IMG/VR virus record: IMGVR_UViG_2700989162_000004
Coordinates: 1 to 22,618 of that record
Direction: 5' to 3' (one strand)
Length of the DNA stretch: 22,618 nt
Source of the DNA: a virus
Lineage: Duplodnaviria > Heunggongvirae > Uroviricota > Caudoviricetes
The position numbers were made by a program, and so were the translations under genes. A model generated the notes under the pieces. It did no database searches and was not told the DNA's origin. It worked only from the letters and a program-made list of their open reading frames with translations. Shown here piece by piece: positions 10,492 through 16,377 of the stretch (within the stretch, counting starts at the first letter, position 1; each line of letters opens with the position of its first letter).

Positions 10492-10567
10492 TGGTGCTGG
10501 TTAACGGACTTGAACCGCTACCCATTCGCTTACAAGGCGACTGCTCTACCATTGGAGCTAAACCAGC
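10492..10567 (-). tRNA. tRNA-Thr (anticodon UGU), CCA encoded
   Basis: Minus strand GCTGGTT...GCTC-CAATGGTA-GAGC...loop CTTGTAA...GGTTCAAGTCC...AACCAGC-A-CCA; 7-bp acceptor stem, T-loop signature, anticodon loop CUUGUAA; one A-G mismatch in the anticodon stem. Confidence 0.7.
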
Positions 10568-10572
10568 ATGTT

Positions 10573-10647
10573 TGGCGGGACAGCGTGGACTCGAACCACG
10601 ATAAGAAGGTTAACAGCCTTCCGTAATGACCTTTATACGACTGACCC
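10573..10647 (-). tRNA. tRNA-Asn (anticodon GUU), CCA encoded
   Basis: Minus strand GGGTCAG...anticodon arm GAAGG-CTGTTAA-CCTTC...T-arm CGTGG-TTCGAGT-CCACG...CTGTCCC-G-CCA; one T-T mismatch in the acceptor stem and a weak D-stem. Confidence 0.65.
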
Positions 10648-12521: not shown

Positions 12522-12886
12522 TATTGGATTCTCTGCATCATGAGAAAGACAATCATGGCGGCGCGAAGGGGATTTTCATGTATAGCTCGCTTAGATTTAC
12601 GGTAGGTCACACCGCGTGCACCCCACTCGTCTTCATCGAGATTGATAATGCTAATCCTGTATTTTTCAATAATCGGCCATGCGTCTGCTGGGTTTGCGCA
12701 TGGGTTAAAGGATCCGCGCTCAACCTCTACTTCAACTGCGTCTCCGTTTACAATGTCTCCCTCAAATGAGATAAACACCATCGCGCCATTCTTACCTTCT
12801 TTGTAATCCGGTGATCCGTTATGAATGGCTTCGAATACCGCCACGTTAATTTCAAAATCACTTAACTGTGAATAATCCATTGTCAT
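12521..12886 (-). CDS. nin-region protein, possibly NinX-like
   Basis: Probable start at the Met of MTMDYSQL..., which overlaps the ninE stop (ATGA); the ORF-track start at 12922 is probably too far upstream; identity by position only. Confidence 0.5.
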
Positions 12887-13912: not shown

Positions 13913-15364
13913 TCAGAATCCTCCTTTCTTCTTGGACTGCGGTTCCTCGCGTTCACGGCGGCGCATTTCAGCAGACTGTTGGTCTGTGTCATAAATAGCG
14001 CCATTTGCCTGAATGCAATACACCGTGCCGGTATTGCCATGACGATTGAGACGAAGGATTAGTTCAGTTTCACCAGGTGGAACACTGTCATCAAAAGCGC
14101 CTTCACGATGGATCCCGACCCAATAATCGCAATCCTGTTCAATCTGCCCTGTATCTCGTGAGTCACTTGGTAATGGGCGTTTATTGGTTCGGCTTTCCAG
14201 TGCGCGGTTAAGCTGTGTCAGAAGCACAACAACGCAATCAAGCTCTTTGGCAAGGTTCTTCAGTCCTTTGGTGATCATACCGTAAGCAAGGTCGTTGCGA
14301 TCGGCCTTCTCAGCGGTCATTAGTGTCAGGTAATCGACCAGAATCATGCCAACACATCCTTTTTCTCGCTTGATTCGACGGCTTTCGCTGACGATTTGAG
14401 CCAGAGATAATCCCGGCGTGTCGTCGATGTAAAGCATGTCGATTTCACTCAAGCGATTTGCTGTTTCTATCGCCCTGTTGAAGTCACCATCGTAATCACC
14501 CTGATAGCCGTCATCAGCGTCATTTGTCGCCGGAAGGTAAAAAATATTCGGGTTAACACCTGACTTCTGTCCTACCAGCTTTTCCAGTATCTGGTCGCCT
14601 GGCATTTCAAGACTGAACATCAGAGCGGGCTTTTTCTCATGCACTGCGCAGTTGATTGCCATCTGGCTGTATAGCGTCGTTTTCCCCATCTTAGGGCGAG
14701 CGCCAATGACGAACAGAGAGCCTTTCACCAGACCTTTCGGTGACAGCATCCTGTCCAGAGATGGGATCCCTGTGCTCATTCCTCGTTGTTCGCCTGACGG
14801 GTCAAATCGCTTCTCAAGGTCGCTAACCCAGTCTTCCATGACCTCACCAAATGAGCGAAGGCCGCGACGCGATCCGGTTTTTGCATGGTCTGTCAGTTGC
14901 GTGAAAATCGCCTGAATAGCTTCGTACTTCTGCGTTGCAGTCATTCCGTTGCGGGAATAGAGCAATTCCGTCGCTTCAGTCATGCGGTTTATGGCGTAGC
15001 GTTCCATTGCGGTTTCGCGAACCTGCATTGCATAGGCAACGATGTTTGCGGCGCTCGGCGTGTTCTTTGCGATCTCAGCGATATAAGCAAAACCGCCAAC
15101 AGACGCCGTTAACGATTTACGCTCCAGTTCATCGAAAAGCGTCAGGCCATCTACTGGCTTTTGCTCCCGGTGCATTCTGGTTATTTCTTCGAAAAGGATT
15201 TTGTGTGGTCGGCTGTAAAATGAATCGGGCTTCAGCATCGCCAGAACTTTCTGGACGCGCTCACTGCTGTCATCATCCAGAAGCAATCCACCAATCACCG
15301 CCTGCTCTGCCTCGATGCTATGGGGCGGCGCATAAAAATTATCGGTCATCGTGTTCACCCTCAC
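13913..15364 (-). CDS. Replicative DNA helicase, DnaB family
   Basis: 483-aa ORF with Walker A GARPKMGKT, Walker B ...ILVDYL and DnaB-like N-terminal SIEAEQAVIGGLL; the true start may be the Met 5 codons in (15349). Confidence 0.9.
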   Translation of the reverse strand: MRVNTMTDNFYAPPHSIEAEQAVIGGLLLDDDSSERVQKVLAMLKPDSFYSRPHKILFEEITRMHREQKPVDGLTLFDELERKSLTASVGGFAYIAEIAKNTPSAANIVAYAMQVRETAMERYAINRMTEATELLYSRNGMTATQKYEAIQAIFTQLTDHAKTGSRRGLRSFGEVMEDWVSDLEKRFDPSGEQRGMSTGIPSLDRMLSPKGLVKGSLFVIGARPKMGKTTLYSQMAINCAVHEKKPALMFSLEMPGDQILEKLVGQKSGVNPNIFYLPATNDADDGYQGDYDGDFNRAIETANRLSEIDMLYIDDTPGLSLAQIVSESRRIKREKGCVGMILVDYLTLMTAEKADRNDLAYGMITKGLKNLAKELDCVVVLLTQLNRALESRTNKRPLPSDSRDTGQIEQDCDYWVGIHREGAFDDSVPPGETELILRLNRHGNTGTVYCIQANGAIYDTDQQSAEMRRREREEPQSKKKGGF

Positions 15365-16238
15365 GAACTTTCAGGTAGGTATTATCGTTAAGCAGGAAAT
15401 CAAATCCCTTTTTGTGCCAGACGGTTCCGCGTTGATGGTTTGGGCGCTCTTCGAACATCCATCGGCAATTTTCGCCAACGTAGCTCAAATAATTTCTCCA
15501 GTCCTGCATCGTGAACCCATGCCCGTCAAGCTGGCGGGTTATCACTCCGGCTTTGCGCCAGAACGTTCGGATCTGGTTTTTACGCTTGTCATTCAGTGCG
15601 CGGATTCTTGGAGCTTCAGGAAGGATTTCGTGGTAAGCATCGACAACATCCTGACAGCTGACGGAAGGTTTTTTCTTGTCAGACTTTTTGTCTGCTGTGG
15701 CACTCTCTAATACGTCAGTATTAGAGATAATATTATTATATTCTTTATCTGTGGTAATTTGCTGGTAATCTGCTGGTACAGCATTGCTTACAGGCATTGG
15801 TATTGCTGGCTTTGAGGTGGTAATTTGCTGGTAATCTGCTGGTACAAAATTTGACTGATAATCGTCATATTTCTCTACTGAGAAAACTGAGAATTTACCG
15901 TGTGAAACCCAGTCAATCATGCCGAGTTTTTTGAACTTTCTAAGCAGGTACTGAACGCGATCTGGTTTGAGTCCTGTTTCAAACGCCAGAGAGTTTCTAC
16001 CGCCAAGTAGCTTCCCTCTGCCTACCAGAATTTCTCCTGCGTCAGTCATTACATACTCAGGCGTATGCTTTGCTTTGAGGATTAAGTGAACCCACAGATG
16101 CGCTGCTTCTGCATCCTTGTAAAACGGCACATCCATAATTTTACGGTGCAGCAAGGCATACCCCTTACCGCTGCTTTGATGCGGTTGTTGTAGCCTTCTG
16201 GCCTCTCTGGCTTCGGCTAGATTAGATATGTTACTCAT
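15339..16238 (-). CDS. Replication initiator, lambda O-like replisome organiser
   Basis: 299-aa ORF directly upstream of the helicase gene; iterons and AT-rich block inside the gene, as for ori-lambda within O; contains the duplicated peptide [10 protein letters not shown]. Confidence 0.7.
15751..15846. repeat. Origin-like iterons inside the initiator gene
   Basis: Two exact 30-bp copies of GTGGTAATTTGCTGGTAATCTGCTGGTACA (15751-15780 and 15817-15846), each holding two overlapping 13-bp units GGTAAT(T/C)TGCTGG; AT-rich block ATAATATTATTATATTCTTTATCT immediately adjacent at 15727-15750. Confidence 0.7.
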
Positions 16239-16377
16239 GACCTTTCTCCTTCTGCATCAGCTTCACTTTTTCCAACTCAGCCCGGAATCGACCAGGCTGC
16301 TTGAAGCTGGACAGGAAGCGATCACGTAGTATGTGTTTGTGAATTTTGTCCTGGTAAGGACTGAGTTGTTTTGTCAT
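16231..16377 (-). CDS. Small ORF between cII-like and initiator genes (P22 orf48 position)
   Basis: Manual translation [48 protein letters not shown] (48 aa); stop overlaps the initiator start. Confidence 0.5.

Follow-up and report, generated by a model that had tools for sequence, protein, structure and literature searches.

The literature on phage lambda describes binding of the origin by the N-terminal part of the initiator, and opening of an AT-rich block. Phage L carries six 11-bp TGTCCAACGGA repeats within gene 18, which have been named as its likely origin, and gene 18 of P22 carries four ~20-bp repeats and encodes a protein only ~25% identical to the L-type initiator (PMC8022706). Plasmid iterons follow a helical phasing rule (PMC5043065). 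Closest to the locus studied here are the HK022/HK620-type phages, in which the element that we describe is already known as a putative origin in public records, and is thus not new. The GenBank record of VT2-Sakai (AP000422) carries two misc_binding features, 'ori iteron 1' and 'ori iteron 2' (1913-1942 and 1979-2008 of our locus L002), which are exactly GTGGTAATTTGCTGGTAATCTGCTGGTACA. The RefSeq record of HK620 (NC_002730) has a two-piece rep_origin at nt 393-488 of gene O, equivalent to positions 15751-15846 of our sequence, and the rep_origin of Sf6 (NC_005344), at the homologous position, is described as a 'repeat region reminiscent of the phage lambda origin'. A single synonymous substitution, GGTACA to GGGACA, sets the second repeat unit of HK022 (U02466) apart. 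The existing annotations are all worded 'putative' or 'likely', and we found no published binding, unwinding or replicon experiment on the HK022/HK620/VT2-Sakai type of origin in the literature searched, two older primary papers lying outside that search.

We analysed a 22,618-bp stretch of viral DNA (the window), which overall resembles the P22-like podovirus HK620 most. The features that bear on the putative origin, all within or next to a replication initiator gene, are the following.

15339-16238, minus strand: replication initiator gene (ORF) of the HK022/HK620 'O' type, 299 aa, with the putative origin in its middle
15849-16166, minus strand: N-terminal domain of the initiator (~residues 25-130), predicted winged-helix (AlphaFold2, Foldseek), presumed iteron reader
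15817-15846, minus strand: iteron cluster 1, an exact 30-bp unit with sense-strand cores GTACCAGCAGA / TTACCAGCAAA / TTACCA, 11 bp apart
15781-15816, minus strand: spacer between the clusters, which holds them 66 bp (6 x 11) apart and has a partly conserved ACCAATGCCTG motif inside
15751-15780, minus strand: iteron cluster 2, an exact 30-bp unit adjoining the AT block (repeat analysis)
15728-15750, no strand: AT-rich block TAATATTATTATATTCTTTATCT, 21 of 23 A+T (91%), candidate DNA unwinding element
15704-15727, no strand: perfect 24-nt palindrome TCTCTAATAC-gtca-GTATTAGAGA, third element of the putative origin (repeat scan)
13913-15364, minus strand: gene for a DnaB-like replicative helicase (Pfam DnaB, 3e-31; DnaB_C, 3e-60), directly downstream of the initiator gene, whose end it overlaps

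Along its full 900 bp, the initiator gene shows 98.8-99% nucleotide identity with gene O of HK022, VT2-Sakai, mEp235 and an Stx1 phage, and the N-terminal 131 residues of its product are 100% identical to HK620 O. The protein matched PHROG 345, 'replication initiation O-like' (E=1e-87). Upstream of the gene lie, in order, a 48-aa ORF, cII and a P22-type cro, with cI divergent, and we identify the locus as a lambdoid early-right operon, read on the minus strand. A helicase ORF of 467-488 aa followed the initiator gene in 25 of the 25 relatives scanned (five phage records end inside the ORF), and it was DnaB-like by Pfam or by annotation wherever this was checked. The origin segment is present in 374 of 5,426 complete E. 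coli genomes (~7%), including Shiga-toxin phages such as VT2-Sakai.

The original prediction proposed that an exact 30-bp unit occurs twice, 66 bp apart, and a recount bore this out: the 30-mer GTGGTAATTTGCTGGTAATCTGCTGGTACA is found at 15751-15780 and again at 15817-15846, with starts 66 bp apart. Both copies are identical and their flanks diverge at once on each side, with no exact extension. This is the sole exact direct repeat of at least 14 nt within the 22,618-bp window, for which simple arithmetic gives a chance expectation of ~2e-10 exact 30-mer pairs. Each unit had been read as two overlapping 13-bp iterons in a 2+2 layout. The 13-mer GGTAAT[TC]TGCTGG does occur at four sites of that kind (15753, 15764, 15819 and 15830, and nowhere else in the window), but the unit is better parsed as three cores that follow one another in 11-bp steps, GTACCA, TTACCA and TTACCA on the sense strand, and the 2+2 layout gave way to a 3+3 layout of short direct 11-bp sites. 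The cores begin at gene nt 394, 405, 416, 460, 471 and 482, that is, at offsets of 0/11/22/66/77/88, and because 66 = 6 x 11 all six stand in one 11-bp register. When the window was scanned with the iteron 11-mer at one mismatch or fewer, matches clustered at the putative origin only, with a single stray match at 2414. The repeat scan detected no inverted repeat inside the iterons (15747-15846).

We compared this layout with a set of 35 relatives, made up of 5 phage records (N-domains 45-65% identical) and 30 prophage loci from ~20 Enterobacterales genera. The strongest self-similarity lag (lags 6-120, whole gene) was exactly 66, at the same gene position, in 33 of the 35, and lag 11 was among the next strongest in those 33. 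The common layout in the 11-nt register is three cores, a 33-nt spacer, three more cores and an AT-rich run. Two loci, L035 and L036, break the 11/66 phasing, their cores being spaced by 12 bp and their lag being 80 bp, so the rule has exceptions. Spacer length is fixed across relatives and its sequence is poorly conserved (mean identity 51%, versus 66% for the iterons). At least six core types were found among the groups, TTACCAGCA, TGTCCAGCC, TGTCCAACGG, GTGCCAACAGA, TTACCAACAGA and AATCCAAAGGA. Identity from cluster to cluster inside one genome averages 94%, compared with 66% for iterons between genomes; the repeat sequence shifts in concert in all copies while the architecture stays. In a Vibrio-phage relative that is 30% identical, too, repeats with an 11-bp period and then an AT-rich run lie in the initiator gene, and a DnaB-like helicase gene comes next. 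Whole 66-bp units are also polymorphic in number, with three or four units giving proteins of 321 or 343 aa, compared with 299 aa for two. Proteins of 321 and 343 aa are common in E. coli, E. albertii and Salmonella, the extra units were confirmed at the DNA level, and each of them preserves the 11-bp register.

As had been proposed, the AT-rich block lies directly adjacent to cluster 2; we place it at 15728-15750. GC content dips to 0.27 (60-nt windows) around the putative origin, and by nearest-neighbour free energy the least stable 30- and 40-bp duplexes of the whole 22.6-kb window are those at 15719-15749 and 15708-15748. The equivalent 45 nt of the relatives are 58-82% A+T. No sigma-70-like promoter was found between 15300 and 16450, the region that contains the AT block. 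No DnaA boxes lie near the putative origin; the nearest TTATNCACA-like sites (one mismatch or fewer) are at 12867 and 17039, and their count in the window is no higher than expected by chance. A search of the window against Rfam gave two tRNAs, away from the putative origin, and no other RNA family.

The iterons could be initiator-binding sites that serve mainly for control, through autoregulation of the translation or transcription of O, titration of the initiator or handcuffing incompatibility, with initiation elsewhere. Plasmid iterons serve both roles (PMC5043065), ectopic lambda iterons inhibit phage replication (PMC3349717), and the copy-number polymorphism of the 66-bp units would be a natural means of tuning such control. 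However, the adjoining AT block, the least stable of the window, and the palindrome beyond it reproduce the full ori-lambda layout, and there is no second iteron cluster in the window, which covers the early region and part of the phage. We consider it improbable that control is the main function of these repeats, and favour their role as an origin.

The palindrome at 15704-15727 lies on the far side of the AT block from the iterons. It was absent from the original account of the origin. The GenBank and RefSeq phage records examined do not mention it, and the AT block is likewise without annotation in these records, which mark the repeats only. A perfect palindrome is present in all 35 relatives, with arms of 9-11 nt and a total span of 24 nt, in 16 different sequences, and it starts 21 or 24 nt past the last core. 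We aligned these palindromes in 18 distinct rows. A caveat to the figures that follow is the centring of each row on the best palindrome of its gene; the flanks are nevertheless gapless and the distance from the iterons does not vary. Pairing was kept in 97.2% of the cells of this centred alignment, compared with 28-51% in slid controls. Changes on both sides were seen at 10 of 10 palindrome pairs across the 18 rows, and a one-sided change at none. None of 500 shuffles matched the palindrome on four of five measures, and 1 of 500 did so on further pair types.

This conservation bears on the reading of the palindrome and its T/A-rich run as a plus-strand intrinsic terminator that is antisense to O, or as an mRNA hairpin that regulates O or the helicase. 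A consensus scan did flag 15704-15727 with TAATATTATT as terminator-like on the plus strand, and compensatory conservation would fit an RNA structure as well. There are only three G-C pairs in the stem, however, and at no point four or more consecutive T; upstream there is neither a gene nor a promoter-like site on the plus strand; and the region holds 2 terminator-like sites where shuffles lead one to expect 1.5. The alignment has one G-T cell in 180 and no pair with a one-sided change. The absence of such one-sided, G-T type changes suggests a Watson-Crick symmetry of DNA, and the lambda origin carries its own equivalent palindrome in the corresponding position. A terminator or a regulatory RNA hairpin thus seems very improbable to us, and we retain the palindrome as a component of the putative origin.

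The initiator family is mosaic, as illustrated by Sf6, whose C-terminal domain is 99-100% identical to that of the window and whose N-domain is only 45% identical. Using Mantel analyses, with iteron anchors placed by the CCA register, we related the origin elements to the two halves of the protein. Iteron identity correlated with N-domain identity (r = 0.47, p <= 0.0005) and not with C-domain identity (r = 0.00, not significant), while palindrome identity correlated with that of the C-domain (r = 0.455, p <= 0.0005) and to a smaller extent with that of the N-domain (r = 0.13, p = 0.03). Individual pairs of relatives gave a similar picture. Where the N-domains were at least 0.85 identical and the C-domains 0.6 or less, the iterons were 95-98% and the palindromes 58-67% identical in seven of seven pairs. 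Where instead the C-domains were at least 0.85 identical and the N-domains 0.6 or less, the iterons were 47-56% identical in six of eight pairs and 81% identical in the remaining two (L039 vs L041 and L039 vs L007), and the palindromes were 71-100% identical across all eight. Palindrome type showed a Spearman r of only 0.06 with the first 200 helicase residues, and one pair of relatives has identical palindromes, yet a C-domain identity of only 43%.

Recognition of the iterons by the N-domain would be expected to give the iteron pattern seen here, although physical linkage alone could yield these correlations. Since the iterons follow the N-domain and the palindrome follows the C-domain across mosaic pairs, the usual crossover would fall in the AT block, which we infer to be where members of this family usually recombine to give mosaics. 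A possible, still tentative interpretation is that the origin is a two-module device, in which 11-bp direct repeats would be read head-to-tail by a winged helix, through monomer recognition of the plasmid type and not dimer recognition of the lambda type, and a palindrome conserved in structure and not in sequence would move with the C-terminal half as a separate element. If so, the palindrome might, for example, form a hairpin or cruciform and thereby stabilise the AT block after melting or position the DnaB-like helicase, and swaps at the AT block would reassort origin specificity and helicase-recruitment specificity. We found no annotation of such modularity in the phage records examined.

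As the original prediction also noted, the repeats encode a duplicated peptide of ten residues in the initiator linker (residues 132-141 and 154-163 of the 299-aa ORF), and linker residues 140-189, which the origin DNA encodes, are disordered in the AlphaFold2 model. Consecutive 11-mers begin in codon phases 0, 2 and 1, so that one DNA word receives three translations, and the first core is in codon phase 0 in each relative for which the register was written out, L038 included. As the 11-bp sub-period falls in all three codon phases, it is the DNA that is constrained, and the duplicated peptide follows passively; three-phase reading rules out a peptide-level explanation of the 11-bp sub-repeat. 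That the repeat is nothing more than a protein-level tandem repeat, a 22-residue linker module, maybe a host-factor-binding motif, that arose by slippage or unequal crossing-over and has no function as DNA, is hardly credible: the 66-bp unit is indeed in frame (22 aa), copy number does change by whole units (299, 321 and 343 aa) and a predicted disordered linker is a region where repeats are tolerated, but in addition to the three-phase reading only 30 bp of the 66-bp unit are shared by the two copies of the window, these copies match at synonymous sites also, and among relatives the peptide varies freely while the DNA periodicity, the spacing and the CCA cores stay.

Collectively, these findings support the proposal that an origin is embedded in the initiator gene, through the annotated identities, the architecture conserved in 33 of 35 relatives, the three-phase reading, the co-segregation of iterons with the N-domain and the least-stable AT block. 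To judge from these sequence comparisons, it is almost certain that the repeats mark a replication origin, that of a lambdoid prophage of the HK022/HK620 type, inside its initiator gene. The fuller reading, a vegetative origin of the HK620/HK022-type prophage that lies in the part of the gene coding for the disordered linker and that works through initiator-driven opening and helicase loading, is in our view very likely correct.

In the AlphaFold2 model of the initiator (52-sequence alignment), residues 30-130 have pLDDT values of 86-97 and form helices and beta-hairpins. The top 50 Foldseek matches in the PDB were all winged-HTH proteins (CodY, SmtB, CadC, CzrA, MarR, CRP, TubR and others) with weak E-values of 5e-3 to 4e-2, and no Rep protein was among these 50 (E-values of 5e-3 or worse). 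A sequence search of the PDB with the family profile gave no solved relative at E <= 1, NCBIfam gave no match to the initiator, and a Pfam search returned DUF7376 alone, below threshold, and not Phage_rep_O.

We propose that the N-terminal winged-helix domain would bind the six 11-bp cores. Given that the two core triplets are 66 bp apart in a single 11-bp register, the bound domains would lie on roughly one face of the helix, and the resulting nucleoprotein array could strain the adjacent 23-bp AT block until it melts. The opened DNA may then receive the DnaB-like helicase of the phage itself, recruited by the C-terminal domain of the initiator. The palindrome may assist, for example by hairpin extrusion or as a symmetric landing site. 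Our comparisons show the anatomy, its conservation throughout the family, a constraint that acts on DNA, and identity with origins annotated before; that the initiator binds, that the DNA unwinds, that the helicase is loaded and that the origin is active we infer by analogy with lambda and plasmid iteron origins. The O/helicase module differs from the biochemically studied lambda-type module, and the origin therefore remains a prediction.

Replication of Stx phages drives toxin production, and the element may have modest practical interest through these phages; otherwise it is ordinary, a putative origin belonging to a common replication module of the lambdoid type. The comparative set offers a ready design for testing a non-lambda initiator, with at least six iteron specificities, variants of two, three and four units, and a covarying palindrome.

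The origin of P22 is likewise inside the initiator gene (gene 18), ahead of gene 12, which encodes a DnaB-type helicase, and occupies the same genomic slot of a P22-like phage; it is of another specificity type and another iteron format. The plasmid iteron origins of pSC101, P1, F, R6K and RK2 resemble the window in having asymmetric direct repeats phased with the helical repeat, an adjoining AT-rich region for opening, and a replicon-specific initiator, which here is predicted to contain a winged helix. Plasmid iterons are roughly 17-22 bp long. The window differs from these origins in its 11-bp repeats, in lacking DnaA boxes nearby, in the placement of the origin within the coding sequence of its own initiator, and in an initiator that belongs to no recognised Rep family.

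The resemblance to ori-lambda, which the original prediction had emphasised, holds for the layout: the origin is in the middle of the gene for a 299-aa initiator, iterons, AT block and palindrome follow one another along the direction of transcription, and a replication-partner gene comes directly after the initiator. The lambda palindrome, with 12-nt arms and a 4-nt loop after a ~40-bp AT block, is the counterpart of that in the window. The resemblance does not extend to the sites or to the protein. Lambda has four iterons of ~19-20 bp that are dyad-symmetric, are spaced 20-24 bp apart and bind O dimers, whereas the window has six asymmetric 11-bp direct repeats in two triplets, with no inverted repeat among them in the repeat scan. 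The partner gene of the window encodes a DnaB-like helicase, while lambda P instead recruits the DnaB helicase of the host. We also considered assigning the locus to the lambda-type origins by membership, and rejected this: between the initiator and lambda O neither BLASTP (E=4.8) nor hhalign (probability 0.2%) detected homology, and PF04492 (Phage_rep_O) matches lambda O at 6e-36 and not the initiator of the window. The element is therefore lambda-like by analogy only, and the same applies to its proposed mechanism.

The phages Sf6, ST64T and L share with the window the 3+3 architecture of 11-bp sites, the AT block and the palindrome, and differ in their core (TGTCCAACGG) and in N-domains that are 45-57% identical; gene 18 of phage L is homologous to the initiator gene, and its N-domain and that of the window are 57% identical. 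HK620, VT2-Sakai and HK022 carry the same element as the window, in a gene 98.8-99% identical and at coordinates that coincide.

The number of repeat units in the initiator gene differs between natural alleles. We identified E. coli prophage alleles of the window's initiator gene that carry three or four tandem units, compared with two in the window:

Locus L011, 1501-2532: initiator allele of 343 aa with 4 tandem 66-bp units, E. coli prophage
Loci L012 and L013, 1501-2466: initiator alleles of 321 aa with 3 tandem 66-bp units, E. coli prophages

All extra cores in these alleles hold the 11-bp register, and where the spacer carries substitutions, they are the same in every unit of a given allele.

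Core spacing and a single core base also vary among relatives:

Loci L035 and L036, gene nt 410-530: variant origin, Silvania and Leclercia prophages
Locus L001, 1641-1670: unit 2 of HK022 (U02466, a 1994 sequence)

In the Silvania and Leclercia prophages, the TTACCA cores recur every 12 bp, in frame, encoding the peptide NYQPNYQEDYQ, and the cluster-to-cluster distance is 80 bp rather than the usual 66; both loci still carry the usual palindrome. The two units of HK022 differ at a single base, with GGTACA in unit 1 and GGGACA in unit 2; on the sense strand this reads GTACCA to GTCCCA and changes codon GTA to GTC synonymously. Because unit 2 differs there, the first core of the triplet tolerates variation at the GTA/GTC position.

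The spacer itself contains a further element:

Window 15791-15801, sense strand: fifth 11-mer in mid-spacer, ACCAATGCCTG, at the same offset in relatives

This 11-mer is alike, following A[CT]CAA[TG]..CTG, in relatives with differing iteron types, although the likeness was not seen in the Sf6/ST64T type. It could be a host-factor site in common or an ancestral remnant.

Period-11 repeats were also detected in a relative of about 30% identity:

Locus L047, 1182-1367: initiator-gene repeats of Vibrio phage 1.157.O

Here, direct repeats of 11-bp period, GCAAACGAATC, are present in 4-5 copies inside the initiator gene and are followed, still within that gene, by an AT-rich run of 9-bp period, with a DnaB-like helicase encoded by the next gene. 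A palindrome was not found.

Three further features of the window were noted:

Window 10492-10647, minus strand: phage-borne genes for tRNA-Thr (TGT) and tRNA-Asn (GTT), side by side
Window 16231-16377, minus strand: 48-aa ORF (HK022 orf48), flanked by cII and the initiator gene
Window 15351-15710, plus strand: ORF of 119 aa, running antisense to the initiator gene

In related loci the 48-aa ORF is assigned to Pfam DUF2740. PHROG 1913 and several RefSeq records name it 'tail protein', which looks like a mistaken annotation for an ORF of the early-right operon. The 119-aa ORF, which the Stx1 phage record lists as hypothetical protein ORF b66, is probably a spurious call.

Beyond the iterons, two adjoining elements were compared across the family:

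Window 15728-15750, with its counterpart in compared loci L005-L044: AT block, apparent mosaic junction
Window 15704-15727: perfect 24-nt palindrome just past the AT block

Across relatives, the iterons segregate with the initiator N-terminal domain and the palindrome with the C-terminal domain; the mosaic junction of the family appears to lie at the AT block. Loci L039 and L044 have identical palindromes at a C-domain identity of only 43%. The palindrome is kept in 35/35 relatives, as 16 different sequences; in their alignment, compensatory changes affect all 10 pairs, with 0 one-sided changes. The HK620, Sf6 and VT2-Sakai records contain no annotation of it. Ori-lambda has a palindrome of its own, analogous to the one in the window.
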